Of a stretch of 64,000 bases of DNA, positions 3,134-59,351 are shown piece after piece. How positions within the stretch are numbered: the first letter of the stretch is position 1; every line of letters begins with the position of its first letter. The notes under the pieces are model-generated. The model saw only the letters and a program-made list of their open reading frames with translations. It was not told where the DNA came from and did no database searches. This DNA is from an uncultured Methanosarcinales archaeon (GTDB lineage: Archaea; Nanobdellota; Nanobdellia; Woesearchaeales; GW2011-AR15), in contig CAYTWW010000004.1 in NCBI GenBank assembly GCA_964441565.1, forward strand, positions 35,407 to 99,406, read 5' to 3'. The position numbers and the translations under genes were made by a program.

Positions 3134-3158
3134 TGACAGGTCAGGTGGGGAGTCTGCC

Positions 3159-10547: not shown

Positions 10548-10636
10548 CTCAAGCCTGATTCCTTAACATATAAATATTTCTGATTCACTTCTAATCAATG
10601 ATTAAATTTATATAGTTTTTACCTATCGGAGGAACG

Positions 10637-33213: not shown

Positions 33214-33987
33214 ATGGATCCAATCAGGGACTACACAAAAGAGAAGGTGATCTATGTGTCTAGAGGTGACTGGGGAGAAGAGCCTTCGACGATAGTCTGG
33301 AAAGGTCTTTCTCCTGGCATGGTGCCTGTCGCGATAAAAAGGACAAAGGATAGATCAGGCTACAGGCGCGAGAGAGATGCTCTCGGAAGGCTCACAGGCT
33401 ACCCTAATATCGTCCAGATGGTAGATTCCTTTCATGAGGATCCATGGTATTACATGATTACAACATACGAAGGAGAGAAGGACCTTCCGCATTGCAAGGA
33501 TAGCTTGGGTCTTCCGGATATGCTCCAGCGGATGTCTAAGATATCATATGCCCTTGATCACACCCATAAGTGCGGGATAGTGCATGCCGATGTGAATCCG
33601 GTGAACATCCGGATCAACGGCAGCACGACCACTTTGATAGACTTCGACCTGGCTAGGGGTCTCTATATGCCCATCCTTACTATCGGTCTTGAAAAACCCC
33701 TTTACTATTGGTCAGCCAGGGACAGGAACTCCATCATCACCCTGGCAATGCCAAGACTGGATATACACTCTGTCGGAGCCACTATCGATAATTTCGCAGG
33801 TGATCTGTTGTATGGCGAATGTTGGCATGGGTTCCTTCACTCCCACAGCAAAGAACCCAGGGGAGCGGATGCAGAAAAGCTTTCAAGACTGCTTCATAGG
33901 ATCATGGAAGAGACGAAGACTGCCTCTGACCTGGCTCACCTTCTGGAGGATTCATCAGGTAATCCTGCATTCACGAGGCTATCATGA
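33214..33987 (+). CDS. Protein-kinase-like fold protein (ePK/Kdo-WaaP lipopolysaccharide kinase-like)
   Basis: Catalytic loop HKCGIVHADVNPVNIRI (HxDxxxxN) and DFDLA (DFG-equivalent). Confidence 0.6.
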   Translation: MDPIRDYTKEKVIYVSRGDWGEEPSTIVWKGLSPGMVPVAIKRTKDRSGYRRERDALGRLTGYPNIVQMVDSFHEDPWYYMITTYEGEKDLPHCKDSLGLPDMLQRMSKISYALDHTHKCGIVHADVNPVNIRINGSTTTLIDFDLARGLYMPILTIGLEKPLYYWSARDRNSIITLAMPRLDIHSVGATIDNFAGDLLYGECWHGFLHSHSKEPRGADAEKLSRLLHRIMEETKTASDLAHLLEDSSGNPAFTRLS

Positions 33988-35237
33988 ACGCATTCTATCA
34001 TCGGCCAGGAGAGGGACGGCCGATTATGGTAGTCAGCGCCAATATCGGCCTTGGTAATCCCAGGTTCCTTGATGCCCTTTGCAGGCATCTGGCACTGCAG
34101 TCGACAAGGCCTGTCACAGGAATATTCGCAGATGACTTCAATCTTATAACTTCCAGGCTTTCAGAGAAATTCCTCAGGAGTCCTCATCGGGAGAAAGCAA
34201 GGACTGGAGACGAATCCTACAACACATTGGAAGGATATCTGAGGAGCAGAGGAGAGCTCGGTGCAGCAAATATCGCGAAAGCTCGGCTTGGTACAGATGC
34301 AGTGTTTGGACCATGGGCTGCATGGGCTGCGAAGCAAAGTATGGATGTCATCGGTACACAGGAGCTTCCGCTGGCATGCCTGGCAAGCAGGATGGAGGGA
34401 AAAGACATCCATCTCGGCCTGTATATCGCAGACACTATCGAGAAGCCAGCAGTCCATAGGATAGTCCCTCACCTTGATGCCTTGTGGCTCACATCTGGCT
34501 ATGATAGCGCGTTTGGAGGATACAGGGAGTTCCTGCCCGCGTATCAGAAAGGCGACCTGCTATCGATGTTCTCCAGCCAGCCGATCACAGGCACGATCCT
34601 CCCTCCTGAGATTGCGGAAAAAAGAGGGGAGAATTACATAAAGAGATGGGCTGAGATAGATAAGGTCATCTCAGGAAAACAATCACTTGAGGTCTGCATC
34701 ATCTCCTCAGGCTCCGGGATCAATCATGGCTGTGCCTATGATATCCTGGGTTCCCTTGAAGGCTTATCCGGAGTGAACATCAACGCCATCGCGACACAGC
34801 CTGTGGATGTGCCTTTATATTCAGCGTTGGATGGTCGGCTTGTCAGGAATCCCAACTCCAGCTATGCAGACAAGCATCAATTGATAGATGCATCCTATGA
34901 GATGCTCCAGAGATGCCATCTGGCCATAATCAGCCCAGGAGAGCTGGCCTCGATCTGCGAGGCTCTCGGGATACCATTCCTGATGATGAAAGGACGTGGA
35001 TTCAATGAGCTGCACAACTCCCAGGTCTATGAAGGTTTCTGCACAGGCATCCCGCTGCCTGATGCAAGCAAGGTTGGACAACTTATAAGATGCCTGGTCA
35101 ATCCGGATGATCCTCAGATCTACAAATTCAGAGAGGAATATCAGACAGATGGATATAGGGCAAGGAATGGATCACCTGACAAGGCATACACCCTTCCTTC
35201 CCAGGGTGTGACAAAGCTGCTTGAGAGCTTCATATAA
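33984..35237 (+). CDS. Putative GT-B-fold glycosyltransferase (MurG/MGDG-synthase-like), overlapping the kinase gene by ATGA
   Basis: Two Rossmann-like halves (MVVSANIGLGNPRFLDAL… and …AIISPGELASICEALGIPFLMM…). Low-confidence family call. Confidence 0.35.
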   Translation: MNAFYHRPGEGRPIMVVSANIGLGNPRFLDALCRHLALQSTRPVTGIFADDFNLITSRLSEKFLRSPHREKARTGDESYNTLEGYLRSRGELGAANIAKARLGTDAVFGPWAAWAAKQSMDVIGTQELPLACLASRMEGKDIHLGLYIADTIEKPAVHRIVPHLDALWLTSGYDSAFGGYREFLPAYQKGDLLSMFSSQPITGTILPPEIAEKRGENYIKRWAEIDKVISGKQSLEVCIISSGSGINHGCAYDILGSLEGLSGVNINAIATQPVDVPLYSALDGRLVRNPNSSYADKHQLIDASYEMLQRCHLAIISPGELASICEALGIPFLMMKGRGFNELHNSQVYEGFCTGIPLPDASKVGQLIRCLVNPDDPQIYKFREEYQTDGYRARNGSPDKAYTLPSQGVTKLLESFI

Positions 35238-35253: not shown

Positions 35254-35694
35254 TCATCCTGCTCTCTTTGCGAGAAATCCGCCTATGCCTGCTAGCGCAG
35301 CCAATGCCCCAAGTGTGCCGAACTCAGGCGCATCCGGGATCTCATCTCCGCAGAGCGTGATATGGCTGATATCCTTGTTATCAAGGTCGCTCTTGTGAGA
35401 AGTACCTGAAGATCCGCCTGCATAGGTGTAGTAGTTCTGACCTCCTTTAGCTAATGCACCGTTCGCTCCCGGGCTTGATGTCCACAACGCAGTGGTTGCA
35501 TTGCCATCGATGCTCACCTCATAGCCGGATCTGACACCTTCTTCGCTGACCATGTATGAGTTCCCTGCCCACTCCCATTTCACGATGCCGAAGTCAAATC
35601 CCCTATCGATGCACTCTGAATCAGGAGAACCGACCTTGGCCAGACCACCAGAAGCAAGCATAAAAAATATCACAACCATCAGGATTTTCTTCAT
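35254..35694 (-). CDS. Secreted PEF-CTERM sorting-signal protein
   Basis: Signal peptide MKKILMVVIFFMLASGGLA. C-terminus …DAPEFGTLGALAALAGIGGFLAKRAG* (PEF motif, hydrophobic helix, basic tail). Confidence 0.8.
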   Translation of the reverse strand: MKKILMVVIFFMLASGGLAKVGSPDSECIDRGFDFGIVKWEWAGNSYMVSEEGVRSGYEVSIDGNATTALWTSSPGANGALAKGGQNYYTYAGGSSGTSHKSDLDNKDISHITLCGDEIPDAPEFGTLGALAALAGIGGFLAKRAG

Positions 35695-35728
35695 TTGACC
35701 ACCTCTTTGAAATAAATAAAAGAAAAGA

Positions 35729-36322
35729 TCAATTCTTCTTTCTCTTGACAGAAAGATAAGCGCCAGCTCCGGCAAGCACAAGTGCTGCTCCGACTGTGCC
35801 GAACTCAGGAGCCTCGCCGTCAGGTGTTGGCTCGCTTATGCAGTATCCTCTCACTGCATCTACTTCGACAGCATCGTTCCAATCGTCGCTCTTGATCTTG
35901 ACATATCTTACTGACTGATAGGATGTGAAAGCGATAGATAGCTCGTCATCCCCCTTTCCATCTGTCGATCCGACATACTCCCATCCTGCGTTAGGCTGGT
36001 TTGATACATAGATATCCACATCAAACTCACGTGAGTTGTCCTGATAGACCTTGAAGTCGAATCCAAGCCTGTCCCAGACCTCTTCTCCTTCTCCCATATC
36101 CAGGACGATGTATGATCCTGCCTTGTTCAGATAAGCGTACCTGTTGTCATCCTCTCCGACAGCTTTCTGTGCATTTGTCACTGAACCGCTTGTCACTGCT
36201 ACTGCATTGGCATAAGCGATCTCATCATCTCCTGCCCAGTAAGCTCCCTTAGGGCAGCTGTGTGCCAGCACGCTTGTGGCGAGCAAGGCGAAGACAGCCA
36301 TTATCACGATTGATTTCTTCAT
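35729..36322 (-). CDS. Secreted PEF-CTERM sorting-signal protein
   Basis: GGAGG RBS, signal peptide MKKSIVIMAVFALLATSVLA. C-terminus …GEAPEFGTVGAALVLAGAGAYLSVKRKKN*. Confidence 0.8.
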   Translation of the reverse strand: MKKSIVIMAVFALLATSVLAHSCPKGAYWAGDDEIAYANAVAVTSGSVTNAQKAVGEDDNRYAYLNKAGSYIVLDMGEGEEVWDRLGFDFKVYQDNSREFDVDIYVSNQPNAGWEYVGSTDGKGDDELSIAFTSYQSVRYVKIKSDDWNDAVEVDAVRGYCISEPTPDGEAPEFGTVGAALVLAGAGAYLSVKRKKN

Positions 36323-36502
36323 GTTTTTTCCTCCACGGGGACGCATTGATTGTATGTTCCCCCTGATTAGGAGTTATTGAAGTGGAGCTATTATATATAC
36401 TTTTCGGAAATGTTATTACTTTGGAATAGTACCATGTTATGATGTAGTCTTGATAGAGAATCAGCATTGCCTATTTACAAATTAAGAATGAGCAAAAAAA
36501 AA

Positions 36503-36994
36503 TTAATTCTTCCTCTTCCTGGCAGCATATACGCCAGCGACTGCGAGGAAAGCACCTGCTCCGAGCACGGTGAACTCAGGGATGAATGCTGTACCAGTCT
36601 CCTGGACCTTGACATTATCTCCTTCCATGCCATTCACGACATAAGCGAATGATCCGCCCATGGCGTTTTCTGTCTCGAGCATGATGACTCCGCATCCATT
36701 CTCATTGGTAGGTGTGGTTACGACTGTAGCTTTGAAGACATTTGTATCAGTATCTACTGCATCAAAGCAATCAGCGTCGTCGTTTCCGTCAAAGCAGTAG
36801 TCAGTGATGACCAGTGGCATACCAACAATAGGTGTTGATCCTTCAACATCGTTTTTATAGATGCATGCATCTACATAGACGGTGTCATCTGATTCCATGC
36901 CAACATCATACGGATTCAGGATTATCTCTGTTCCTGCAAGAGCAGTCGACACCATGACGAGTGCCATTGCCATAAAAGCCATTGTCTTATTCAT
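36503..36994 (-). CDS. Secreted Cys-rich PEF-CTERM sorting-signal protein
   Basis: GGAGGT RBS, signal MNKTMAFMAMALVMVSTALA. C-terminus …TAFIPEFTVLGAGAFLAVAGVYAARKRKN*. Confidence 0.8.
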   Translation of the reverse strand: MNKTMAFMAMALVMVSTALAGTEIILNPYDVGMESDDTVYVDACIYKNDVEGSTPIVGMPLVITDYCFDGNDDADCFDAVDTDTNVFKATVVTTPTNENGCGVIMLETENAMGGSFAYVVNGMEGDNVKVQETGTAFIPEFTVLGAGAFLAVAGVYAARKRKN

Positions 36995-37145
36995 GTTTCT
37001 TGACCTCCAAAAGGGATTGTGATTACTGTATATTGTGATTATTACCCCCTATATTTGGTTAGATAACTCCTAAGTTATATATAAACTTTTCCGTTATTCA
37101 TTAGTTAGTGACAATATCATATGTCGTAATATTTATGCACAGTTC

Positions 37146-37736
37146 CTACCAGAATTGGAAGCTCTGCGTATAGACGACAAAGAATCCAAGTGCGAGATTC
37201 GCCACAGCATGCGCTATTATGCATGGACCGATGCTTTTCCTTTTGAAATATAGGAGATTCAGAAGAGCTCCTGTCAAGAGGCCGGCCAGCCATCTCGTAT
37301 GAGAGAAGCCGAAGAACAGAACTGTGATGATGAAGCTTGGAAGTGTAAAACCTGGCTTGACCTTCCTCCAGTCCTTATCAATTATCCATCTGAGCAGGAA
37401 TGACCTTGTGAAGAACTCCTCAACTACAGGAGCAAGGACCACACCTGTCAAGAGCTTCAGAGCGATGTCCAGGGATGTGTAATCATATATCACATCTGGT
37501 CCGGTCTTTGGATAGAAAGGATCTAGGAGAACCCAAAGCGCGAAGATCGCGATTCCCAGCGCTACTGCGAGCACATCGAACGTGATCCTGAACTTAAGAT
37601 CCCTCCTGTATATATATAGACATACAGAGACTGCAAGTATCTTGAAGATCAGGGCCACTGTCAGGTTTCCAGTCAGATAATGAGCTAGAGGGAATGAGAA
37701 CAGGTAGACTGCGAATGTCACGATGAGAGGTATCAC
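37146..37736 (-). CDS. CPBP-family (CAAX protease / Abi, PF02517-like) intramembrane metalloprotease, candidate sorting protease for neighbouring PEF-CTERM proteins
   Basis: 196 aa, about 6 TM. All three CPBP motifs are present in order: EExxxR (VVEEFFTRSFLL), FxxxH (FGFSHTRW), HxxxN (IAHAVANL). GTG start, with a TATA ATTTTATATAGG ~25 nt upstream (37756-37767). Confidence 0.75.
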   Translation of the reverse strand: MIPLIVTFAVYLFSFPLAHYLTGNLTVALIFKILAVSVCLYIYRRDLKFRITFDVLAVALGIAIFALWVLLDPFYPKTGPDVIYDYTSLDIALKLLTGVVLAPVVEEFFTRSFLLRWIIDKDWRKVKPGFTLPSFIITVLFFGFSHTRWLAGLLTGALLNLLYFKRKSIGPCIIAHAVANLALGFFVVYTQSFQFW

Positions 37737-37797
37737 AACTATATGTTAGGAAATCCTATATAAAATGGTTTCTGTCGACAGTCTATTTGGCAGCTAA

Positions 37798-37819
37798 TTC
37801 ACTATCTAGCAATAGTGAA
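37798..37819. promoter_or_regulatory. Perfect inverted repeat TTCACTAT-CTAGCA-ATAGTGAA in the divergent CPBP / PEF-CTERM intergenic region
   Basis: 8-bp arms with a 6-bp spacer, between the two divergent TATA boxes (37756-37767 and 37838-37848). Candidate operator. Confidence 0.4.
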
Positions 37820-37876
37820 AAACATAGATTTAAATATAGCGGATGTTTTTGCCATCTTCATCAAGGGGGTAGACCT

Positions 37877-38353
37877 ATGAAAAGAACAATAATCCTGTTC
37901 ATGCTCATGATTGCTTCCGTAATGGCGGAAAGCATCCAGCCTATGGCATGCGATCCATTCGCCCCATCGGCAGAATTCGAAGAGGGAGCAGACATCTGCT
38001 TCTACGGCACAGGCTTTGATGAGCCAGTCGACCTTGCTCTGAGGGACAAGGCCACAGAAGAGGAGGTAGGGACCATAATCGATGCTGATGTCGACAATGG
38101 TGTCCTGAGCACTGTCTTCTCAGGCAGGTTCTTCGAGAATGTGAAGGCTGGCATCTACAGGCTCTTCATCAATCTCAGAGACAGAGACCTTGAGTACTCT
38201 GAAGACATCGTAGTGAGAGGCCAGATGGCTGATGACGATGACGATGATGACGATGATCCGACTGATCCTTCAGTCCCTGAATTCGGGACGATAGCTGCGG
38301 GCCTTGGCCTTATTGGCGCTGGAGCATATGCTGCAAGGAGGCGAAGGATATGA
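37877..38353 (+). CDS. Secreted PEF-CTERM protein with poly-Asp (D9) acidic tract
   Basis: GGGGGT RBS, signal MKRTIILFMLMIASVMA. …GQMADDDDDDDDDPTDPSVPEFGTIAAGLGLIGAGAYAARRRRI*. Confidence 0.8.
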   Translation: MKRTIILFMLMIASVMAESIQPMACDPFAPSAEFEEGADICFYGTGFDEPVDLALRDKATEEEVGTIIDADVDNGVLSTVFSGRFFENVKAGIYRLFINLRDRDLEYSEDIVVRGQMADDDDDDDDDPTDPSVPEFGTIAAGLGLIGAGAYAARRRRI

Positions 38354-39291
38354 GAAAGATACTTTTCATACTAGCTCTGCTCTCAGCTGCAGTGTTGGCA
38401 GATTGCGACCAGGTCGCTTGCCTCAATCAGGCTGAGAAAGCATGGTGCTCCCCAGGAGACTCTGCCTGTGTATTCTCTGAATGCGGCTTTTTTGAAGAGA
38501 GCGATGCAGATGGAGACAGCTGGACAGACAGCTGCGATGCATTCCCACAGGATGCTTCAGAGCAGGTGGATTATGACGCAGATGGCTGCGGCCACAACTC
38601 AGACATCGACGATCTCGACCATTCTGAAGTCTCTGGCTGTGAGGTCATCACAGACGATGATGACGATGATGACGATGACGACACAGAGGATACAGACGAG
38701 GATGGCATCGAAGACGAGTCTGACAACTGTCCAACTGTCGCAAACCCTGACCAGGCAGATAATGACGGAGATGGCCTAGGCGATGCATGTGACAACTGTC
38801 CTTCGACATCAAATCCTGACCAGGCAAATGCTGACGCAGACGGAACAGGCGATGCTTGCGAAGTTGTCGAGAAGAAAGAAAGCATCAGCTCAGGGAGCGG
38901 AGGAAGCGGACTAGGCACAGGCATCTGCATGTCAAGGGCATGGAGATGCGGTGAGTGGTCAGCATGCGAAGAAGGAACGCAGACAAGGACCTGCGATCAG
39001 ATCAACTTCGACTGCAAGGGTGACGAGAACAAGCCAAAGGAATCGCAGACCTGCGAGATGCCTGTCGAAGAAGTGATCCAGACACAGGACCAGCAGTCTG
39101 AAGAGACGGAAGAAGAGACCCAGGAGGAGACGGCAACAGTCACTCCTGTAAAGGAAGATAGTGCAGGGCTTTCAGGCATCACAGGAAATGTGATAGACGT
39201 GCCTAGGGGAGAATTCAACCCATGGATCCTGCTTCCAGTGTTCCTCGGCGGACTCTTGCTGATCTTCCTGTTCTTCAGGAAGAAGAACTGA
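38350..39291 (+). CDS. Secreted Cys-rich thrombospondin-type-3-repeat (Ca-binding) surface protein with poly-Asp tract and a C-terminal TM/basic anchor
   Basis: Signal MRKILFILALLSAAVLA. TSP3 repeats DNCPTVANPDQADNDGDGLGDACDNCPSTSNPDQANADADGTGDAC. D10 tract. C-terminus …NPWILLPVFLGGLLLIFLFFRKKN*. Confidence 0.7.
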   Translation: MRKILFILALLSAAVLADCDQVACLNQAEKAWCSPGDSACVFSECGFFEESDADGDSWTDSCDAFPQDASEQVDYDADGCGHNSDIDDLDHSEVSGCEVITDDDDDDDDDDTEDTDEDGIEDESDNCPTVANPDQADNDGDGLGDACDNCPSTSNPDQANADADGTGDACEVVEKKESISSGSGGSGLGTGICMSRAWRCGEWSACEEGTQTRTCDQINFDCKGDENKPKESQTCEMPVEEVIQTQDQQSEETEEETQEETATVTPVKEDSAGLSGITGNVIDVPRGEFNPWILLPVFLGGLLLIFLFFRKKN

Positions 39292-39848: not shown

Positions 39849-40952
39849 CTACACAGCTTTCTCAGCGACTCTCCAGGTCCACATGACATTGATGATGTAG
39901 TTCCAGACGAATGCGACAAGGATGCCGACCAGATTGGCAGCCAGGTAATACATATTGAACTTCTCTACAAGCAGCAGCAGTATCAGGTAGTTGATGGCAA
40001 ATCCTCCGGCTGCTGCGATATGGAACTTAGCGAGCTTGCCCATGAATGAACCGCCTTTGACTTCCCTGAAGGTCCAAAGGTTGTTAAGGAAGAAATTCCA
40101 GAGGATGGAGAGTTCGACAGCTATCGGGCTTGAATACAGATACTTGATCTTCGCATGCTCTGTGAGAAGCCATAGGAACAGCATGTTGATGAAGATGCCT
40201 GTCCCTCCTACAAGGCTGAACTTGATGAGCTTCTCGCTTGACTTCATCCTGAGACGCACACTGTTCATGAAGAACTCCTGCATGTCCTTCCTGCTGATCT
40301 TCGACTCCCCATGCTGCCTGAGCCGGAAGACCAGAGGGATCTCTTTTACACGAGCGCCGTGCCTGAGGAATTCGTAGAGGACTGTGGATTGGAACGCATA
40401 TCCCTTGGTCTCAAGATCCTCTTTCTTTATCTTCTTGTATATCGAGGTCCTCAGCGCCCTGTAGCCGGATGTGCAATCATTGACCTTGTAGAGCCCTGCT
40501 ACGAACCTGGCGAAGAAGTTCCCCCCTCTTGATATGATCTGCCTTGTGATGGGGAACCCAGGCGTGCCTCCGCCTGGGATGTACCTCGAACCTATCACGA
40601 AATCATATCCTTCGTCGATGGCACGCATGAAATGCGGGATGAGGTCCGGAGGATGCTGCAGGTCAGCGTCCATCTCGAGCATCACATCTGCTTTCAGATG
40701 ATGCGCCGCATGGTCGAAGCCTCGGATATAGGCAGCGCCAAGCCCATTCTTCTCCCCAAGGAGGAGATGTATGTTCTTATGCTTCTGCTGGAATTTCCTG
40801 ACTTCGTCGGCTGTGCCGTCAGGACTCTTATCATCGACGACAAGTATGTGCATGTCATGCTTGATCTTCCTGAACTCTTCAAGGAGGAGGGGGATGAGTT
40901 TTTTGATATTCTGCTTTTCGTTATATGTCGGTAGGACAATCACTGCTTTCAT
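39849..40952 (-). CDS. GT2 glycosyltransferase of the dolichyl-phosphate mannose/glucose synthase (Dpm1-like) type fused to a C-terminal GtrA-like membrane domain
   Basis: Internal start MKAVIVLPTYNEKQNIKKL…, …LVVDDKSPDGTADEV…, DAD (…EMDADLQHPP…). C-terminal 4-TM GtrA-like region. Confidence 0.8.
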   Translation of the reverse strand: MKAVIVLPTYNEKQNIKKLIPLLLEEFRKIKHDMHILVVDDKSPDGTADEVRKFQQKHKNIHLLLGEKNGLGAAYIRGFDHAAHHLKADVMLEMDADLQHPPDLIPHFMRAIDEGYDFVIGSRYIPGGGTPGFPITRQIISRGGNFFARFVAGLYKVNDCTSGYRALRTSIYKKIKKEDLETKGYAFQSTVLYEFLRHGARVKEIPLVFRLRQHGESKISRKDMQEFFMNSVRLRMKSSEKLIKFSLVGGTGIFINMLFLWLLTEHAKIKYLYSSPIAVELSILWNFFLNNLWTFREVKGGSFMGKLAKFHIAAAGGFAINYLILLLLVEKFNMYYLAANLVGILVAFVWNYIINVMWTWRVAEKAV

Positions 40953-41058
40953 AAGCAGGATTCCAGTGAAAGGACTATAAAAATATTTCCCGAATAATCT
41001 GAAGGTACGAGACGTCATCTCTAAAGGGTGATAAACTTTATATCTAGGATCCTACCAC

Positions 41059-49219: not shown

Positions 49220-50755
49220 ATGAAGAGATACCTGCTCATCATCCTGTTCATGGTCCCTGCTCTCGCAGGCTTCTTCATGGCAGGCGACCGTATCTATTCA
49301 AGTGTGCATCCTCCTGACGGCAACAATTACCTGTCCATGATGCAGCAGGCAAAGGAAGGCAGGATCCTCCTGACAAACATGTACACTCCTGAGGATGTCC
49401 CATCGCTCCTCTTCAGGCCTGTCTTCACCCTGGCCGGCTGGGTCTCCGGCCTCACAGGACTCTCAGACCAGATCGTCTATCAGCTTTTCCGCATGGCGGG
49501 GATCGGACTCATCATCTTCTACCTGACAAGATTAGGCAGGCTCTTCTTCAAGGGAAGGCATGAACATCTCTATCTCTACATCGCAATATTCGGAAGCGGC
49601 ATCGGCTGGCTCTTCATCCTCCTATCGACATTCGGCGTCAAGCACTATGGCTCAGTAGACCAATGGATCACTGAAGCCAACAATCTCCTCATCTTCCTCA
49701 GCCATCCCCACACTCTCTTCTCGCTAGCATTCATGATCGCAGGAGCATACCACTTCATGAAAAGCTATGAGAACAGGCAGCTGAAGGATTACCTCATATC
49801 AGCAGCATTCCTCTTCATCGTAGGGATAGAGCATCTATTTGATGTGATAACGATCGGCTCAGCAGTCGCCATCCTCCTGCTCGATGACCTTATCATAACA
49901 AGGAAGCTTGACTGGCAGAGGATCCGGCACCTTATCGTCTGGGGCACGATAATCGTCATCCCATTCATCTACACATATGCGCTCTTCAATGTCCCATCCT
50001 ATTCAGAGTGGAATGATCAGAATGAGCTAGACACTCCTCCTATCCATCAGGTGATATTCGGGTACGGAATAATGGCAGGAGCATCTGCCCTTGCCTTCAT
50101 CCATCTTGCCAGGAATGGATACTCAAAGGTCCGGCCCGAGATAAAGCTGATGATATACTGGATCATCGCGACACTCATCCTCATATATTCCCCGCTCAAT
50201 GTACAGCGCAGGTTCCTGGAAGGCCTGCATGTCCCCATGGCTGTCATGACCGGCATATTCATCTTCTCAGTCCTCCCTCACTACATCAAGGACAGGAGGC
50301 TTGCCTCAGGTCTTTTGATCATCATGATCCTTTTCCTCCCTCTGACAAACATCTACCTGTTCCATAAGAGGACAGTCGCGCAGGACACAGGGAGAGGATC
50401 ATTCCCATACAATGTGCCTGCATATCTGGAACAGGGGGAGGACGAGGCCCTCAGATGGATAGCTGAGAAGACCTCACCTGGCGAGGTAATTCTATCTGGC
50501 TACAATATCGGTAACTATATCCCTGCTTATGCGAACAGACGAGTCTTCCTCGGCCACTGGGCACAGACAATCAGGTTCTATGAGAGAGCTGAGATGGTCG
50601 ACAGCTTCTACAAGACAGGAGACCTCTCGCTCATCGACCATGAGATAGATTACATCTATTATGGCGTAGACGAGAAAGCTTTAAATCCAAGCCTTTCGCT
50701 GCCAGGTGAGGAAGTCTTCCATAACGATCTGGTGCAGATATACAAGGTACGATGA
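49220..50755 (+). CDS. Polytopic membrane protein, putative GT-C-like glycan-processing enzyme
   Basis: 511 aa, ≥10 TM, large extracytoplasmic C-terminal domain. The stop overlaps the flippase start. Confidence 0.45.
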   Translation: MKRYLLIILFMVPALAGFFMAGDRIYSSVHPPDGNNYLSMMQQAKEGRILLTNMYTPEDVPSLLFRPVFTLAGWVSGLTGLSDQIVYQLFRMAGIGLIIFYLTRLGRLFFKGRHEHLYLYIAIFGSGIGWLFILLSTFGVKHYGSVDQWITEANNLLIFLSHPHTLFSLAFMIAGAYHFMKSYENRQLKDYLISAAFLFIVGIEHLFDVITIGSAVAILLLDDLIITRKLDWQRIRHLIVWGTIIVIPFIYTYALFNVPSYSEWNDQNELDTPPIHQVIFGYGIMAGASALAFIHLARNGYSKVRPEIKLMIYWIIATLILIYSPLNVQRRFLEGLHVPMAVMTGIFIFSVLPHYIKDRRLASGLLIIMILFLPLTNIYLFHKRTVAQDTGRGSFPYNVPAYLEQGEDEALRWIAEKTSPGEVILSGYNIGNYIPAYANRRVFLGHWAQTIRFYERAEMVDSFYKTGDLSLIDHEIDYIYYGVDEKALNPSLSLPGEEVFHNDLVQIYKVR

Positions 50756-52209
50756 CAGCAGCAAGAAGGATAGCTAAGAACGCAGGCATCATGTTCATTG
50801 GGGAGAATGCCACAAAAGTCCTGAGCATAATACTCGTCTTCCTTATTGCCAGGCTTCTTGGCGATGTAGACTATGGGAAGTTCACCTTCGCCCTATCCTT
50901 CACAGGTCTCTTCTACATGCTCATAGATTTCGGCACCAGGCTGCTCCTTGTCAGGGAGATCGCCCAGAACAAGGATAAGATACAGAAGATAATCTCGAAC
51001 GTGTTCACCCTCAAGCTTATCACCGGGATCCTGGTATATATCATCCTCAACGTGACTGCATTCCTTCTCGGATACGACAATGTGACTCTTATCGCTATAT
51101 CGATTGCTGGACTCGGCATCATGTTCGAGAGCATGAGCGCGACCCTTTTCGCAATATACCAGGCACATGAGAGGATGGACATACCTGTCATCGCAAAGAT
51201 ACTGCGTGTGATCGTGAGGTTCGCGATCACAGTCCCTATACTTCTCATGGGAGGGACATTCATGCAGGTCCTGATAGCCGCGATTTTTGTCCAGTTCCTC
51301 GACTTCCTGTTCCAGCTCATCGTGACCTTCAGGTTGTATATGAGGCCTGCTCTCGGATGGGATCTCAAGTATATGTTTTCTCTGTTGAAGCGCTCCCTGC
51401 CTTTCCTCCTGGCAGGGGTATTCGTATCAGTTTATTTCAGGATAGATGTGACCATGATGTCCAAGATGGCGCCTACATCCCTTCCTGGTGTCTACACAGC
51501 CGTCAGCAGAGACGCTATCATCGGATGGTACAGCGCAGCATATAATGTTCTCGACGGTATCTCTTCAGTACCTATCGCAGCGATAGCAGCGCTCCTTCCT
51601 GTGGCTATCATCTTCAGGAAGGAATCTGGTGAGAAGCTGCTTGATCTGTTCCGCACATCATCCAGATATCTCACATATCTCTCTATACCCATGGCAGTAG
51701 GAGTGAGCATGCTCGCTGAGAAGATCGTCCTCCTGATCTACAAGGACGCATATATCAATTCAGTCCCTGCGATGATAATCCTTTCCTGGACGATAATACC
51801 CCTGTCCATCAACTATGTCATGGGCACGATGATGGTCGCTGTGCAGAAGGAGAAGGAAGTGGTAGCGGTCCTGATGGGTAATGTGATAATAAATATCATC
51901 CTCAACATCTTCCTCATCCCCAGGCTCAGCCTCTATGGGGCGGCGATGACAACTGTCCTGACAGAGGTATTCTACCTCTCCGGCTATTATTTCCTCATCT
52001 CGCGAGAAGTTGGCAAGCTGGACTGGGCTGCGATGTTCGTCAAACCCTCGATCTCAGCAGCTGTGATGGCGCTTGTCCTCAGCACTGTCGACTATCATCT
52101 ATTCCTCATGATTCCTATCGGCGTAGTAACATATTTCGGTTCCATGTTCGCACTCAGGGCCTTCACTTCAGAAGACATAGACCTTCTCAGGCATCTTGTC
52201 AAGAGATGA
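50752..52209 (+). CDS. Polysaccharide/oligosaccharide flippase (MOP superfamily, Wzx-like)
   Basis: 485 aa, ~14 TM, typical PST family. Confidence 0.65.
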   Translation: MTAARRIAKNAGIMFIGENATKVLSIILVFLIARLLGDVDYGKFTFALSFTGLFYMLIDFGTRLLLVREIAQNKDKIQKIISNVFTLKLITGILVYIILNVTAFLLGYDNVTLIAISIAGLGIMFESMSATLFAIYQAHERMDIPVIAKILRVIVRFAITVPILLMGGTFMQVLIAAIFVQFLDFLFQLIVTFRLYMRPALGWDLKYMFSLLKRSLPFLLAGVFVSVYFRIDVTMMSKMAPTSLPGVYTAVSRDAIIGWYSAAYNVLDGISSVPIAAIAALLPVAIIFRKESGEKLLDLFRTSSRYLTYLSIPMAVGVSMLAEKIVLLIYKDAYINSVPAMIILSWTIIPLSINYVMGTMMVAVQKEKEVVAVLMGNVIINIILNIFLIPRLSLYGAAMTTVLTEVFYLSGYYFLISREVGKLDWAAMFVKPSISAAVMALVLSTVDYHLFLMIPIGVVTYFGSMFALRAFTSEDIDLLRHLVKR

Positions 52210-52210
52210 T

Positions 52211-55200
52211 CTACATTCTGAGCAGCTCGTAGACCTGCTTCTCCTGCCGAATCATCTTCAGGGATGAGAACAGCTCAGACCTGGTGCTGCATGGGATCTC
52301 CAGGCAGTGCTGGTCAAGGAATGACCTGATCTCTCCACTGTTCCTGTAATACTCGTACTCATTGTCAGCCATGTATGGAAGCGCCAGATACAAGCCCTCA
52401 AGGCTATGGAGAGGGAGCCCTGACAAGAGCTGCAGAGGCATCTCAGCCTTCTTCCGGAAGTCCAGGTTTATCACATTCTCAGGCAGTTTGAGGACAGAGC
52501 TCTTCTGAGGTTCGAATTCTCCCAGATAGATATTGTATAGCACCCTGTACATCTCGAGCCTGGAGTCAGATGACATGAGGACCTTTGCGACATCAGGCCT
52601 CCCGACAGACTCTGAAACCCACTGCTGAACAAGGCTTGTGTTCGAGAGCATCCTGAAGCTGTCCTCGCTCATCGCATGCAGGTGTCTGGCAAAGTCATAG
52701 AGAGTATGGGCCTCGCTGCCCTCGGGAAGGACAAGAGGCCTTGCTGCCTTCTTTGTCATGAGCTTTCCGTCTGCTGGCCTTTTCTTGTGTCCCCCTCTGC
52801 CGAAGATGAAGAAGAGTATCGAGCAAAGTAGACATACGACCAAAAAGCCGATTATCGCATCAGCGTGGCTGTTCTTTGCCTGCTTCGGCTCTTCGATCGA
52901 GGAGGACTTCTCTTCGAGCCTCACTTCCTGCTGCTCAGGTACGACAGGTATGGAAGGCTGCTCCATCACAGGAGGACTTGATGTCTTTTCGATTATCTCT
53001 GGTTCTGGCTCTGCTTTTACCACAGATGAACGGCTGAAGCTGCCTCCACCGCCGCCACCACCGCCGCTGCCTCCGCTGCCTCCGCTGCCGCCACCACCGC
53101 CGCCGCTATCACCGCCGCTTTCCTCCTCTTCGACAGCAGCAGTTGCAAGGCTGTATTCAGTGAAATGAGGCACATCAAAGCTGACATTCTCACCTAGCGA
53201 GATGTTCTCGCATATCGGGCAAGGCAGGCCGTCTTTTAGTATGACAGGGTCTGCGAGAGTGACATGGTAGAATGTAATCCTTGCGCTGCGGTTGAGGACT
53301 GGCACCAGTGAGGAATTGATGTATACCTTCCTATCCTCTATCCCGACAAATGAATCCAGGTCGACTGCAGTGACATTGACCTCTCCTCTCAGATTTATCC
53401 TGCCATGGTCAGATATCTCTAGCGTGATCCCCTCGAAAGTCAGGTTGTTCCTATTGAAGTCAGTAGTATGTCCATCAAACTTAGATGCATTCGGATAACC
53501 GGGATCATTGCTCCTTGTTCGTAGGTTGTGGACACCTGAGCTGTAAGCATTCCCATATCTATCAGTCCCATTCACCTTCCAATAATAGTCAGTGTCATTC
53601 TCAAGACCAGTGGCTGTCATCTGGTGGCTTGTGGCCTTTGCTGTGGAATGGAGATAGCTGGGAGCTGACAGGTCCGCATATGTCGAGATGAAGAGGCTAG
53701 CATTCCCTGATTCGTTCAGCGTAAGAGATACCCTGAACCTGTCTGATGAGATGGAGTTGTTCGATATCGCTATGATCGCAGGCGGAGTGATGTCCTCTGG
53801 CTCATTCTCAAGAGTCCGGAAGAAAGAGCTGTTGGTTATGCAGTTATTGTGCCTGTCGCACGTCGTCACATTGAAGTCATAAATAGCGTTGGCTGTCAGG
53901 TCTTGAAAAAAAAAAGTATGCACAGTAGTATAGACTGAGTCGACGACTGTGCCAAGGATCGTCCAGATGGTAGAGTTCGTGGCCTCATTTGTGATGATTG
54001 TGATCTGGCCAGTCTGGTTTGTCGTGATATTCTGATGGATCAACTCAGGATAGCTGATATCCTCCCCGGAACCGGTGATCACATAGTAGTTCGAGTTCTG
54101 GCCGGTTGTTATGTCGAAAGTCACCATGTTGCCTGAGACTGAGAGGACAGGCACGTCAGATCCATCGTCCTTCGTGATTATGAATCCCTGGGTCAGCGAA
54201 AGGTCAGAGCAGTCCACAGTCACTCTCCTTGTCTTAGGTACATCGATATACGGATCCCGCTCCATCGTGTTGGCTGTGAGGACTATTCTTTCTGACGAGA
54301 CCCTGAGATGTGCCTGTGTAGGTTGGTCTGATTCGAATAAAGTTTTTTCTCCGTCATGTATGTATGTTGCATTGAATGCAGCTATCTCTCCAGCCGAATA
54401 TGCGAGCGCCCATCCATCAGTCGACTTGCCTGCATAGGATACTGTTCCATCATTGTCTCCGTCAAAGAGGACTGTGTTCCCTCCGTCAATGAGGCCTTTC
54501 TCAGTCCCATTGATAGCAGTCACTCCCTCTTCAGAGAAGGTGTTCCAGTGATGCGAGAATACAAGGTCCAGGGAAGGATCGCCGATGTCTGTGTAGTAAT
54601 AGCGCCTCCCATACTTGCCGAGGCCTCTGGACCCGCCTGAACAGCTTGTCTTGGAGAAGCAGTAATTTACATTGGTCCTCCCTCCGCCGAAATACACTGG
54701 CGAATCAGAATAGATGAGCTGCGTGGACAGGAAGATGTCCTGGCCAGTCGCAGCATTAGTCCTCCTCGCAGTCCAGTTGAGCCCGCTCACAGTAGATGCG
54801 AACTCATCATCGATGTTGATGAAGTTGTGATAGATGCGGTCCCCCTGCGTCACACCTGACACCTTTGTCCTCTTGACCACTGTGTCGCCGAACTTCACGA
54901 AATACTCCTTCACAGGATCAGCCTTGTAGTACGGACGCCACACGAATGCGCCGGCGAGATTCGCGTCCGCAGTACCCATGTAATCCTCGATGTCGCCGCC
55001 GTACTGCAGTGGAAACTGGCGGAAATTAGGATAATCGGCAGGATAAAGTGCTGGATCACATGTTTTCATTCCATAATACTGGTTTTGTCCATGTTCTCCA
55101 CATTCAGACCTGTAATAGCTTACTAACCCCTCGACATTCTGTGTGTCGTTCGCTAAGCTGATTCCATTTTTCCAGAAATCTGCCCTTGTATCATCTTCAT

Positions 55201-57613
55201 ATGGGACTTGCTCGTAATCAATAAATGGCTCCCCCAGGATATAAAGATAATAGCCCTGAGCTTGGGAGTGTCCCATCCCTCTTTCCTCACCACCATCAAT
55301 CATCAGAAAAGTGTCATTGGAGAAAGTATAGTTCGTCCTCACAATCAAGGTGTCTTCTGCATTGTCAAATACGATTTTTGGCATAGCAGACTCTGGAGCC
55401 TCTTCAGAATCAACTGAGTCAAGGATCTGCTTGTAGAGATATGAGAGAGGATATGTTCTCATGGCACTCGATTCAGATATGTTGAAAGCATACTGTCTAA
55501 TCCAAAGTGATGTCTTCTTAGTGTTCAGGTCATCGCACATCAGAGCAAAGAAAAGCGGAGTATCCCACCCTGTGAACAAGCTGTCGTCGATCTTCTGATA
55601 GCTGTTTGAATCTCCTTTTTGCACTGACCTAAGGTAAAAAGGCTCATCATTTCTGGAATCTGACCCTTTGTAGTTACCATCAAGCAGCATAACAATATGC
55701 TCTCTTGCCATAGCACAAAAGGCATTATTATACTCTTCAATATCTATGAGCGAGTTCCGATATCTCATCCAAAGGACATCAGCTAGGTGAGGAAAAGCAT
55801 AAGTTCTGTAACCATATCCTTCCTGATACATATGCCAGGAGTCATTCTTGTATGACTGAAGTATCTTGTCTTCCCTGTCCATCCATTCATCTGGTATGTT
55901 CTTGCCCCAGTACTGGTCGCTGAGATTATGGATAAGAGTAGGGTTCTCGGCATACTCTCCGATGAAGCTATAGCAGAATCCACCCATCCCTGATCCAAAA
56001 GCCAATCCATTGTCCCCTGCAATCAAAGCGTCATTGTCGAGATCAGGGCGATCTCCGGGATGGTTAACGAACAGCTGGCAGATATCATGAGCTTTTCGCG
56101 AAAGATCCTCCTGCTCCTCTTGTGTAAAATAGGGAACCATCATATCATAGGCAATAGCAACATGAAGGTATTGATGGAACGCCTGGTTGGAAGTGAATGA
56201 CGAGAGGCTCCTGTTCAGCCAGCCATGTATGTGATCACTTGCAACCTTACAATTGTTTGTGTTTTCATATCCATTATGCATACAACTCATTGCAGCCTGG
56301 CGTGCATTCACAGCATAGGGGTCAGCGCTGTCTCCTGAATATCCTTCATTCCAGTCGGAGGATACAAAGTTATTAATCCAATTGCAGGAGTCATAAGCCA
56401 CCTCGTTTTCTGGATCAGAGCAAAAAGGGATGTAGGAATTATACTCATCAAGTGAGAAATGAAACCATGGCCTGTCCTTGAAGGGGATGTAGATCCTTTG
56501 GGCATTGTTATCCTCAACATCCTCCTCTACACTATCGTCAGTATCAATCTTAACAAATCCTGAATGCCATCCATATGACTTCTCCCAATTGCATATTATC
56601 TCTGTTTCTTCCATCCCTGAAAGAGAAAGGCTGTCTTCACATAAAACAGTTCCATCCATATCCACTTTGTAGACGAAGGGTCCGGTTGGCTCTGATCCAG
56701 CGTTCCTTATAATGATTGAGAGAGGCATTTCACCTATTGGATCTAGAAGATTACTTCCAGTGTAGTCTCGTGGCAAGGTGTACCTGATAGATTTAACATA
56801 AATATCTTTTTCAGGAGGCGAACCAAGTCGTTCCTCATTGTAAATTGCCTGGACATCTAATGTAGAGAAATTGCTTCTTCTCCAGATTCTCAGCTCATCT
56901 AGGTAACCTACAATATCCTGAGAAAATATCCCTGCTCCAACTCTTAGCATGCTCCCAGAAGTCATATTTGGGGTACCGAAGGGTGTGCTTGAATTCACAA
57001 CCAGTTCTCCGTTCTTCCATACATAGCTCCTCTGTTTGTCATATTGTAGGAAGTAGAAAGTCCATTGATCTGTAGGTGACTCCTGAGTATCCCCTGGAAA
57101 AGCTTTCACTTCACCTCCTTGCGCCCATACATGAAGGTTCATCCCATAGCCTGCTTCAGTCACATGCAGGTATTTAGGCCCTCCACAGCATCCTTCATGC
57201 CCGATATCCATAATGTCAAAAGAGTTTGCTCCTGAGACCGAAATAGTTGGATATAACCAGAAAGCCACTGCAATGCCGTCCGAAAGCTGAAATTTACTGG
57301 ATGAGTTGAGATAGTCAGCACCACCATCAGCAGAGAAATCAGCGCACCCGTTAATCTTGGATTGTGCTCTATCAAGCCATTCACCTGAGCGAAATGGAGT
57401 AAACTCGTGATCGTAGCCGGAATAATCCGTCCATGGCGATGAAGAATCATCGAAAGTCAGGTTCAGTACAAGATCAGATGAAAATGAGGAGCTAGCGGGA
57501 AAAATCACAAAGGCATCAGGTTTGAAACCAAGGAGATACACCACAGCCAGGCATGCACTGACAAGAAAGATGAGTGCAAATATTTTGAATATCCTTATTC
57601 CCCCTGCCATCAA
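52211..57613 (-). CDS. Giant (1800 aa) type-I membrane surface protein with an N-terminal LamG/ConA-like domain, a polysaccharide-lyase-like (heparinase II/III-like) central region, a Gly/Ser linker, a single TM and a ~190-aa cytoplasmic tail
   Basis: N-terminal signal/anchor MMAGGIRIFKIFALIFLVSACLAVVYL. …EEEESGGDSGGGGGGSGGSGGSGGGGGGGGSFSR… linker. TM AIIGFLVVCLLCSILFFIF followed by a basic stop-transfer. Domain calls are inferred from sequence patterns only. Confidence 0.5.
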   Translation of the reverse strand: MMAGGIRIFKIFALIFLVSACLAVVYLLGFKPDAFVIFPASSSFSSDLVLNLTFDDSSSPWTDYSGYDHEFTPFRSGEWLDRAQSKINGCADFSADGGADYLNSSSKFQLSDGIAVAFWLYPTISVSGANSFDIMDIGHEGCCGGPKYLHVTEAGYGMNLHVWAQGGEVKAFPGDTQESPTDQWTFYFLQYDKQRSYVWKNGELVVNSSTPFGTPNMTSGSMLRVGAGIFSQDIVGYLDELRIWRRSNFSTLDVQAIYNEERLGSPPEKDIYVKSIRYTLPRDYTGSNLLDPIGEMPLSIIIRNAGSEPTGPFVYKVDMDGTVLCEDSLSLSGMEETEIICNWEKSYGWHSGFVKIDTDDSVEEDVEDNNAQRIYIPFKDRPWFHFSLDEYNSYIPFCSDPENEVAYDSCNWINNFVSSDWNEGYSGDSADPYAVNARQAAMSCMHNGYENTNNCKVASDHIHGWLNRSLSSFTSNQAFHQYLHVAIAYDMMVPYFTQEEQEDLSRKAHDICQLFVNHPGDRPDLDNDALIAGDNGLAFGSGMGGFCYSFIGEYAENPTLIHNLSDQYWGKNIPDEWMDREDKILQSYKNDSWHMYQEGYGYRTYAFPHLADVLWMRYRNSLIDIEEYNNAFCAMAREHIVMLLDGNYKGSDSRNDEPFYLRSVQKGDSNSYQKIDDSLFTGWDTPLFFALMCDDLNTKKTSLWIRQYAFNISESSAMRTYPLSYLYKQILDSVDSEEAPESAMPKIVFDNAEDTLIVRTNYTFSNDTFLMIDGGEERGMGHSQAQGYYLYILGEPFIDYEQVPYEDDTRADFWKNGISLANDTQNVEGLVSYYRSECGEHGQNQYYGMKTCDPALYPADYPNFRQFPLQYGGDIEDYMGTADANLAGAFVWRPYYKADPVKEYFVKFGDTVVKRTKVSGVTQGDRIYHNFINIDDEFASTVSGLNWTARRTNAATGQDIFLSTQLIYSDSPVYFGGGRTNVNYCFSKTSCSGGSRGLGKYGRRYYYTDIGDPSLDLVFSHHWNTFSEEGVTAINGTEKGLIDGGNTVLFDGDNDGTVSYAGKSTDGWALAYSAGEIAAFNATYIHDGEKTLFESDQPTQAHLRVSSERIVLTANTMERDPYIDVPKTRRVTVDCSDLSLTQGFIITKDDGSDVPVLSVSGNMVTFDITTGQNSNYYVITGSGEDISYPELIHQNITTNQTGQITIITNEATNSTIWTILGTVVDSVYTTVHTFFFQDLTANAIYDFNVTTCDRHNNCITNSSFFRTLENEPEDITPPAIIAISNNSISSDRFRVSLTLNESGNASLFISTYADLSAPSYLHSTAKATSHQMTATGLENDTDYYWKVNGTDRYGNAYSSGVHNLRTRSNDPGYPNASKFDGHTTDFNRNNLTFEGITLEISDHGRINLRGEVNVTAVDLDSFVGIEDRKVYINSSLVPVLNRSARITFYHVTLADPVILKDGLPCPICENISLGENVSFDVPHFTEYSLATAAVEEEESGGDSGGGGGGSGGSGGSGGGGGGGGSFSRSSVVKAEPEPEIIEKTSSPPVMEQPSIPVVPEQQEVRLEEKSSSIEEPKQAKNSHADAIIGFLVVCLLCSILFFIFGRGGHKKRPADGKLMTKKAARPLVLPEGSEAHTLYDFARHLHAMSEDSFRMLSNTSLVQQWVSESVGRPDVAKVLMSSDSRLEMYRVLYNIYLGEFEPQKSSVLKLPENVINLDFRKKAEMPLQLLSGLPLHSLEGLYLALPYMADNEYEYYRNSGEIRSFLDQHCLEIPCSTRSELFSSLKMIRQEKQVYELLRM

Positions 57614-58638: not shown

Positions 58639-59351
58639 TTCTGAACCTTAATCTTACCTAGCCTGAATCTGAGTTCCGCAGAGTTTTTGATATAGTCTCT
58701 TACAGTCTTCCCTATCTTTACCGTGCTACCTGAATCATCTATCCAGTCAACAGGAATCTCTTTTATCTTGAAACCTATTTTTTCAGCAATCAATAGCAGC
58801 TCAGTATCAAAGAAGAATTCATTGTCTTTTATGAATGGTTCCAGTTTCATGAACACTTCTTTTCTGACTCCTTTAAAACCGCATTGCATATCATGTATCT
58901 TTGTAAAGTAGAAAGCCTTAATGAGAGCATTATACCCCCTTGATAAAACCTCTCTCTTGAATCCTCGCTGTACAACTGAACCTTTGATTAGTCTGGATCC
59001 CACAACAATGTCTGCTCCCTGTGAAAATTCTCTCAGCATGCACGGAAACGCATCCAGACTTGTCGATAGGTCTATGTCCATGAATGTCAGTATGTCGCAA
59101 TCACTCTCCTTCCATACCGTTCTGAGGGCAACTCCCCTTCCCTTTATAGGGATCCGCACATATTTAACAAATGGAAATTCCCTTGAGATCCTTTCCATCA
59201 CTGCGGGAGTATTATCCGTGGAGGCATTATCAGCAACCACTATCCGGCATACAGTAATGTGCATTTTTTTGAGAAATTCAATCGTAGACCTGATGCTCTT
59301 TTCCAATGTTTCTGCTTCATTATATACCGGAAAAGTAATGAGGACATCCAT
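58635..59351 (-). CDS. GT2 glycosyltransferase (dolichyl-phosphate hexose transferase-like)
   Basis: MDVLITFPVYNEAETL…, …VVADNASTDNT…, …DIDLS… (DxD). Confidence 0.8.
   Translation of the reverse strand: MDVLITFPVYNEAETLEKSIRSTIEFLKKMHITVCRIVVADNASTDNTPAVMERISREFPFVKYVRIPIKGRGVALRTVWKESDCDILTFMDIDLSTSLDAFPCMLREFSQGADIVVGSRLIKGSVVQRGFKREVLSRGYNALIKAFYFTKIHDMQCGFKGVRKEVFMKLEPFIKDNEFFFDTELLLIAEKIGFKIKEIPVDWIDDSGSTVKIGKTVRDYIKNSAELRFRLGKIKVQK

Follow-up and report, generated by a model that had tools for sequence, protein, structure and literature searches.

What is a pair of acidic secreted proteins, each with an uninterrupted run of aspartates, doing next to an intramembrane protease in an archaeal genome? 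The question is raised by two adjacent genes in a 64-kb stretch of contig CAYTWW010000004.1, deposited as an uncultured Methanosarcinales archaeon; the whole stretch is called the window here, and coordinates are counted from its first letter. Gene 1 (37877-38353, + strand) encodes 158 residues and gene 2 (38350-39291, + strand) encodes 313 residues, and independent gene calling on five metagenome contigs gave the same two products as the open reading frames (ORFs). An earlier, sequence-only reading had described two adjacent secreted proteins with tracts of nine and ten aspartates (D9 and D10) written in GAT and GAC codons, and the ORFs and tracts are as it stated. The N termini are signal-peptide-like, MKRTIILFMLMIASVMA ahead of E in protein 1 and MRKILFILALLSAAVLA ahead of D in protein 2, and acidic residues make up 23-26% of the mature proteins. 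The stop codon of gene 1 overlaps the start codon of gene 2 in the ATGA at 38350-38353, and the same 4-nucleotide (nt) overlap is present in the related loci L007, L010, L011, and L024. On the other side of a short intergenic region, and divergent from the pair, is the gene for a 196-residue CPBP/Rce1-like intramembrane protease of the TIGR03008 type (37146-37736, − strand).

The explanation that we consider probable is that the genes form a translationally coupled pair of predicted cell-surface proteins, Ca2+-binding, membrane-tethered, and adhesive or structural in role, and that they belong to a conserved cassette of a DPANN archaeon that joins the CPBP protease to small proteins with (I/V)PEF tails. 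The pair is then an ordinary case of a known class, that of C-terminally sorted, acidic, repeat-bearing prokaryotic surface proteins.

Protein 2 has 18 cysteines and 26% Asp plus Glu in its mature part; it looks like a type-I membrane protein whose ectodomain is a mosaic. A lipobox at its cleavage site (VLA-D-C) was considered and rejected, given the Asp at position -1. Residues 113-171 (38686-38862, + strand) hold two full units of the form DNCPxxxNPDQxDxDxDGxGDACD and a leading DxDxDG loop; the two 69-nt units are identical at 51 of 69 bases, and the signature DxDxDGxxDxxDNCPxxxNxxQ, with its Cys pair, is present in tandem. These had been suspected to be thrombospondin type-3 (TSP3) repeats, and the database searches bear this out. 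The Pfam TSP_3 model (PF02412) matches residues 135-158 at 26.5 bits (E = 5.3e-6), a narrow margin over its gathering cut-off of 25. In a phmmer comparison with PDB sequences, residues 113-171 matched COMP (3fby, E = 3.7e-38), thrombospondin-2 (1yo8/2rhp, E ~2.5e-37), and thrombospondin-1 (1ux6, E = 8.5e-15), with a weaker match of residues 112-161 to a bacterial OmpA-family protein (5wtl, E = 9e-7). A search with full-length protein 2 returned 3,804 proteins at E ≤ 1e-3, dominated by TSP3 proteins; the best 120 of them are mostly unnamed and all have Pfam TSP_3, and the named ones are bacterial. Except for the identical sequence, the matches span at most about half of the query.

As judged from these alignments, the repeats are genuine and of the Ca-binding type, and their Asp loops would be expected to bind Ca2+. 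They share the repeat pattern and the paired cysteines with the TSP3 regions of COMP, thrombospondin-2, and prokaryotic surface proteins, with which they align over their whole length. Protein 2 differs from metazoan thrombospondins in having no C-terminal lectin-like domain, and from other TSP3 proteins in that its two and a half units sit inside a small archaeal membrane protein. Among curated models, NCBIfam MtsC (NF047638) scores best on protein 2; it describes a TSP3-type cell-cell cohesion MYXO-CTERM protein of Myxococcus and matches residues 97-171 at 59.9 bits (cut-off, 350). Both are TSP3 surface proteins with a C-terminal anchor, and the hosts of MtsC use CPBP-type proteases in sorting. 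However, the match is limited to the repeats, and the tail of protein 2 has neither a MYXO-CTERM signal nor its invariant Cys; protein 2 is therefore not an MtsC equivalog.

Similar repeats were seen in two other places. In L007, an ISL3-family transposase lies within the row of PEF genes and is followed by a protein of >660 residues with TSP_3 and MopE-like copper-binding matches (9430-10545 and 10603-12594 of that locus), and TSP3 repeats therefore recur in the surface proteins of this clade. In the window itself, a PelZ-like pectate-lyase-fold protein (11844-13199, + strand; 221 bits, under the equivalog cut-off) has a TSP3-like acidic loop, DSDLDGMPDSWE (13065-13100), in its C-terminal tail, and would be the second secreted protein of the window with a predicted Ca loop.

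Seven related genomes have kept the gene pair, next to the protease in L006/L014, L007/L041, L011/L015, L012, and L024, and at the end of a row of PEF genes in L010; no other neighbor of the protease is as well conserved. Orthologs of protein 1 are 46-48% identical in L006 and L007, and more were found in L010, L011, L012, and L024. Orthologs of protein 2 (L006/L014, L007/L041 [P0189], L011/L015, L012, L024, and L010 [P0193]) surfaced only through synteny and with a profile from which the insertion described next had been removed. The D10 tract and the canonical TSP3 repeats, together about 75 residues with D10 as the N-terminal part, occur in the window protein and in none of the seven orthologs, which have short, differing acidic stretches at this place, including EEEEEEVVEE, DIEINDTETNETDDKDDDNGDS, and DPDGDGNTNEQEYNDGSDPN. 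The segment is therefore a lineage-specific insertion. Its gain in the lineage of the window is the simpler history, because the window protease shares 62% identity with its L014 counterpart but only 47% with those of L024 or L010. Both poly-Asp tracts, like the TSP3 repeats, are absent from every ortholog found, and so the function conserved in the pair cannot center on these features. What is conserved in protein 2 is a Cys-rich N-terminal domain, a six-Cys module, an acidic stalk, an ITG motif, and a membrane helix. Genuine TSP3 repeats of the Ca-binding type can thus be acquired by a small archaeal surface protein through a recent insertion in one lineage.

This pattern bears on the proposal, made in the sequence-only reading, that the proteins build a sheath, an S-layer, or an aggregate, that is, a Ca2+-cross-linked extracellular matrix with the TSP3 repeats and poly-Asp tracts as its functional core. 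Such a matrix would accord with the genuine TSP3 repeats, the acidity of the mature proteins, and the clustering of several surface proteins in one locus. It is at odds with the absence of the repeats and of both tracts from all orthologs, and with the small size of the proteins, neither of which matches an S-layer or sheath family in Pfam or NCBIfam; the membrane helix of protein 2 is also more in keeping with tethering than with a place in a lattice. The likely identity of the host speaks against it as well. The closest named relatives of the CPBP protease belong to Candidatus Woesearchaeota, Nanoarchaeota, and Pacearchaeota, and by this sequence comparison the host is therefore a Woesearchaeota-like DPANN archaeon, not a sheathed methanogen. 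We regard the matrix as very unlikely.

The taxon labels of several related genomes also look unreliable. Metagenome-assembled genomes labelled "uncultured Methanosarcinales archaeon" (L015, L016, L018, L023, L025, and L033-L035) have protease/PEF loci whose nearest relatives are in Woesearchaeota or Nanoarchaeota.

The poly-Asp tracts themselves, D9 (38231-38257, + strand) and D10 (38653-38682, + strand), are the sole acidic homopolymers of at least six residues in any long reading frame of the window, and are therefore not a chance feature. D9 stands in front of the PEF motif of protein 1 and represents, in this genome, an acidic, Pro-rich spacer that varies among orthologs: at its position the orthologs have EQEEPEEPNPEPDPE, DDDGSDGEDNGEPGEPA, EQEEPPEEPEEPDE, or GGGGGEQSE, and in a set of 94 PEF tails the 12 residues before PEF are 20% acidic, compared to 12% overall. 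Between species, the acidic segments of both proteins differ freely in length and sequence, and the poly-Asp tracts are just one of the forms that this freely evolving spacer takes. The GAY runs had also been put forward as potential length-variable sites. As contingency sites they would vary the length of the spacer within populations through slippage, giving surface variation, and they do hold short 6- and 9-nt tandem repeats, in keeping with the variation of the corresponding segments between species. Against this, the mixture of GAT and GAC codons leaves the longest perfect repeat short, and triplet changes stay in frame, so that no on/off switching is possible. Nor did the available assemblies reveal such variation: five other metagenome assemblies share at least 99.97% identity with the window and are gap-free, and within 37877-39291 they have no indel and none of their four single-nucleotide polymorphisms, a weak test in that all represent one population, whose consensus assemblies conceal minority tract alleles. 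Pattern scans of metagenome contigs for both tracts, and for D10 alone, gave no match in a collection that evidently does not contain this organism. We consider contingency variation quite improbable; the tracts would more simply be flexible cation-binding spacers rather than specific functional sites.

The conserved N-terminal part of protein 2 includes the acidic loops DADGDSWTDSCDAFPQDASEQVDYDADGCGHNSD (residues 52-85; 38503-38604, + strand). In three orthologs, D52, D54, D56, W58, C62, D63, A64, F65, D68, E71, D74, D76, D78, G81, N83, and D85 are invariant, giving the pattern D.D.D.W...CDAF..D..E..D.D.DG.G.N.D, and this set is retained in six of the seven orthologs. By eye, residues 52-85 look like one degenerate TSP3-like unit; they lie outside both the stretch matched by the TSP_3 model (135-158) and that matched by MtsC (97-171).

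The Cys-rich module noted in the sequence-only reading is present as described. It is a 41-residue, six-Cys "W-C-W" domain at residues 193-235 (38926-39054, + strand), with the consensus CxExWxCxxWSxCxxGxQTRxCxDxNxCGTxxxKPxxxQxC. When a 41-position profile of it was run against 1.84 billion cluster representatives, 7,868 matched at E ≤ 1e-3 and 238 at E ≤ 1e-30. Single proteins have up to 17 copies in tandem, and the module co-occurs with CARDB and many other domains (P0190-P0347). Pfam gave no match for the module, either in protein 2 or in six-copy proteins, the TSP_1-family models included; a profile search of PDB sequences likewise returned no match and no thrombospondin type-1 repeat (TSR). 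The six-Cys module is thus a very large family that is uncatalogued in Pfam. An AlphaFold2 model of full-length protein 2, built from a composite alignment, gave the module a predicted local distance difference test score (pLDDT) of 79-97; modelled alone, it has a mean pLDDT of 74 and three strands. The TSRs of C7 and semaphorin-5A rank first in Foldseek, at scores that are not significant, and the TSR fold, as seen in thrombospondin-1 (1lsl/7yyk), TSR3 of BAI1 (7r84), semaphorin-5A (8ckg), and complement C6-C8, is the nearest known to that of the predicted module. On these weak scores, the module is likely TSR-like in its predicted fold, and we do not claim that it belongs to the TSR family. 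In the literature searched, no paper ties thrombospondin type-1 repeats to DPANN archaea or thrombospondin domains to surface proteins of Woesearchaeota; the one co-mention there is unrelated.

After the module comes a Glu/Thr/Gln-rich acidic stalk (39055-39177, + strand), predicted to be disordered (pLDDT <55), that has kept its acidic character but not its sequence among the orthologs. The stalk leads to the ITG motif (residues 277-279; 39178-39186, + strand), 12 residues before the membrane helix. I277, T278, and G279 are invariant in three orthologs, [IV]TG[QNL] is found in five of the seven, and a more distant protein 2-like protein in L064 has GITGN. Among 37 proteins with both the six-Cys module and a C-terminal helix, 12 have [ILVP]TG within the 35 residues upstream of that helix, compared to 4.9% of control windows; in the CPBP loci, an ITG-type motif is present in six of seven module-bearing anchored ORFs and in 8 of 98 others. 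More broadly, [IV]TG plus a hydrophobic residue recurs 10-20 residues upstream of a transmembrane helix and basic tail at the C terminus, as in the window (39178-39186), in L014 (14651-15925), and in L064 (4635-5390 and 5898-6698), and it is almost always found together with the module.

The hydrophobic helix and the tail RKKN at the C terminus of protein 2 (39223-39288, + strand) had also been described correctly. The helix, W292-F309, is Leu/Phe-rich and 18 residues long, and the AlphaFold2 model has a helix at 291-310 with a pLDDT of ~90. No curated sorting-domain model matches this tail. It contains GEF and does not fit the PEF-type pattern; a reading of GEF as a degenerate PEF was rejected, as the orthologs show GQL, TVF, GNF, or GFM there. 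The tail is most simply taken as a type-I membrane anchor whose juxtamembrane motif is conserved, though it may be a new sorting signal. With the PEF-type tail of protein 1, the locus has two different C-terminal anchors, as the sequence-only reading had it, and this arrangement is kept in the orthologous pairs.

Protein 1 is composed of a signal peptide, a globular domain of about 100 residues, the acidic spacer, and a C-terminal sorting tail of the (I/V)PEF type; the protein has no match in Pfam or among PDB sequences. The tripartite tail, PEFGTIAAGLGLIGAGAYAARRRRI (38276-38350, + strand), consists of VPEFGT, a hydrophobic stretch, and RRRRI, and the protein ends in VPEFGTIAAGLGLIGAGAYAARRRRI. 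It fits the consensus [IV]PEF[TSG][TA]I[GA]AGLALLGAG..RRKK derived from the 94 tails at 35 CPBP loci, a count that includes the window and one locus of Kuenenia (L060). Ile or Val occupies position -1 in 87 of the 94 tails, although the search pattern left it free; Cys occurs in 8 of the 94. The same end, with PEF motif, hydrophobic helix, and terminal basic cluster, is present in four proteins of the window, none with Cys in its tail. The other three are small secreted proteins encoded beyond the protease, on the other side from the pair (35254-35694/35781, 35729-36346, and 36503-36994, − strand). All four hydrophobic PEF tails of the window thus lie inside 35254-38353, around the protease.

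Two signal models reached their cut-offs on isolated tails and were discounted. MYXO-CTERM, the sole archaeal or exosortase-type signal model to do so, scored 20.3 bits (cut-off, 20) on the protein 1 tail, where it covers the helix and basic end only and the required Cys is missing. LPXTG_anchor exceeded its cut-off of 15.9 bits on three tails (two PEF tails of the window and that of the L011 ortholog), again over the helix and basic end only and with no LPXTG motif.

The nearest known counterpart of these tails is the PEF-CTERM system, whose cognate enzyme is given as archaeosortase C (Haft 2012, as cited in PMC5244752). The PEF-CTERM/archaeosortase C system of Methanosarcinales likewise has paralogous small secreted proteins that end in P-E-F, a hydrophobic helix, and a basic cluster, and Methanosarcinales contigs, including those of ANME-2c and Argoarchaeum, also have CPBP homologs with PEF tails nearby. 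The window differs in that its tails fall short of the curated models, in that its 64 kb hold no archaeosortase, and in that the gene linked to the tails is the CPBP protease.

The identification of that neighbor as a sorting protease stands in part. It is a protease, of the TIGR03008-type CPBP class; it is not an archaeosortase. TIGR03008 ("CAAX prenyl protease-related protein") scores 121.5 bits (cut-off, 81.05), the Pfam Rce1-like model 57.4 bits, and the protease half of the fused exosortase E model TIGR04162 69 bits. The motifs EEFFTR (105-110), FGFSH (141-145), and HAVAN (175-179) are invariant across 25 homologs, and with them the catalytic EExxxR, FxxxH, and HxxxN residues E105, E106, R110, F141, H145, H175, and N179. 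Proteins of the TIGR03008 family are partners of exosortases or are fused to them, and exosortase-CPBP gene fusions have been on record since 2006. The window enzyme is akin to the TIGR03008/TIGR04162 (VPEID-CTERM) systems in these two scores, and the (I/V)PE core of the window tails resembles the VPEID-CTERM signal; it differs from the fused exosortase E/protease in being a stand-alone protease, and in an archaeon.

Queried with the protease alone, the GTDB species genomes yielded no close relative. A scan with the 25-sequence alignment gave 80 loci, and from synteny searches together with the profile-guided GTDB scan came 47 archaeal loci that encode a homolog of the protease. In 33 of these 47, one or more PEF tails lie within 8 kb of it. 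Distant homologs of the protease are also found in Kuenenia, Myxococcota, Planctomycetota, and other bacteria (L060, L062, L063, and L065-L093); no PEF tails were found near the protease in bacterial loci other than that of Kuenenia, and the linkage of PEF tails to the protease is essentially specific to the archaeal branch. An exosortase-family gene adjoins the protease in 6 of the 47 archaeal loci (L009, L013, and four others), and there is none adjacent to it in the window or in its closest relatives. In L009, where the gene adjoins the CPBP protease and a PEF protein (2453-3967 and 6749-7003 of that locus), it scores 50 bits on TIGR04178 and is most like exosortase E (XrtE), and an 84-residue fragment duplicates its C terminus at 89% identity. 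In L013 (4709-5731), the gene is recognized by a Pfam Exosortase_EpsH match and again adjoins the CPBP protease and a PEF protein.

These loci raise the possibility that the CPBP protease, and not an archaeosortase, is the dedicated processor of the (I/V)PEF tails, with the ITG-anchored protein 2 as its constant accessory or as its second substrate. In the window and the loci closest to it, PEF genes cluster tightly with the protease and no archaeosortase lies within 8 kb; such an enzyme is adjacent in just those 6 archaeal loci; the pair is the most conserved neighbor of the protease; and CPBP enzymes do sort other C-terminal signals, myxosortase being an example (PMC11980579). However, the myxosortase-type signals that a preprint describes all share an invariant Cys, and the PEF tails of the window have none. 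The Mrt models score far under their cut-offs on the window protease (Mrt_core, 16.8 versus 100 bits; MrtJ, 37.7 versus 75; MrtS, 20.3 versus 130). Exosortase-CPBP fusions are known, and the window protease also matches the protease half of the XrtE model. In L009 and L013, an exosortase-family gene does stand beside the protease and a PEF protein, and the negative result for archaeosortase covers 64 kb of the genome. Processing by the CPBP protease alone thus appears fairly unlikely. A more far-reaching version, which we rate as unlikely, is that of a new DPANN sorting cassette in which a stand-alone TIGR03008-type CPBP protease acts, instead of or besides an archaeosortase, on Cys-free (I/V)PEF tails, together with a second, uncatalogued signal. 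The second signal would be made up of the TSR-like six-Cys module, acidic stalk, ITG motif, transmembrane helix, and basic tail, and would mark a separate class of surface proteins, with the pair of protein 1 and protein 2 as core substrates or accessory components.

The explanation that we prefer, a membrane-tethered pair within the conserved cassette, would work as follows. The pair would belong to a cassette of a TIGR03008-type CPBP protease and small proteins whose C-terminal sorting signal consists of (I/V)PEF, a transmembrane segment, and a basic end. Protein 1 would be exported through its signal peptide, and would hold a small globular domain on an acidic spacer (here D9). Its PEF tail would presumably be where the sorting machinery cuts or re-anchors it; candidates for this step are an archaeosortase from elsewhere in the genome, the neighboring CPBP protease, or the two together. 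Protein 2 would begin with the conserved Cys-rich domain and its TSP3-like DxDxDG loops. Its variable acidic segment would have been replaced or expanded, in this lineage only, by D10 and two and a half TSP3 repeats, which should fold as a Ca2+-loaded, disulfide-stapled "wire"; then would follow, in order, the TSR-like six-Cys module, the acidic stalk, the ITG motif, the membrane helix, and a basic cytoplasmic tail. On the envelope, the two proteins may act as Ca2+-dependent adhesion or structural elements, plausibly serving to attach the cell to a host or to the matrix around it. DPANN archaea are believed to rely on attaching to other cells, and to our knowledge almost nothing has been reported on their surface proteins.

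Several results weigh against this explanation. The curated PEF-CTERM model matches neither the full proteins nor the isolated tails, and PEFG-CTERM (TIGR04296) scores 13.2 bits on the tails, under its cut-off of 25. No archaeosortase was detected in the window by tblastn and phmmer with two DPANN enzymes or by Pfam and NCBIfam searches of the ORFs with multiple transmembrane segments. The N-terminal domain and TSP3 part of protein 2, modelled without ions, have a pLDDT of <55, and the argument for an adhesive role is wholly one of domain analogy and of the DPANN lifestyle.

The main finding is modest, and the side results (the module, the ITG anchor, and the protease- and PEF-linked pair) are of more use. 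Curation of the module and of the ITG anchor would improve the annotation of many hypothetical proteins in DPANN archaea and similar uncultured organisms, and would supply concrete candidates for adhesion studies. We consider the TSR-like module, the ITG anchor, and the identity of the PEF-processing enzyme worth following.

The divergent intergenic region between the protease and gene 1 (37737-37876) has, as read from its sequence, AT-rich TATA-like boxes, TATATAAAA at 37757-37765 and TTTAAATATA at 37829-37838, which are putative promoters, and a Shine-Dalgarno-like AGGGGGT at 37864-37870, 6 nt 5' of the ATG of gene 1. Scans of the 64 kb for Rfam families and for tRNAs gave no match. Directly upstream of the PEF cluster, at 33214-35237 (+ strand), a Ser/Thr-kinase-like gene (257 residues) overlaps by 4 nt with the gene for a 417-residue protein of unknown family, and this arrangement is kept on the same-strain contigs L001 and L002.

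Genes for envelope glycosylation are abundant in the window (39849-41018, 50752-52209, 57610-59351, and 59427-63812). They encode a GT2 protein with a GtrA-like domain, a Wzx-type flippase, an acyltransferase, and several large Agl23/STT3-like glycosyltransferases with multiple transmembrane segments, a richness that fits a neighborhood devoted to surface biogenesis. Between them, at 52211-57613 (− strand), lies the gene for an 1800-residue protein with Laminin_G_3 and CARDB domains and with poly-Gly linkers of eight and six residues (G8 and G6, ~53042-53104), which is probably another large surface protein.

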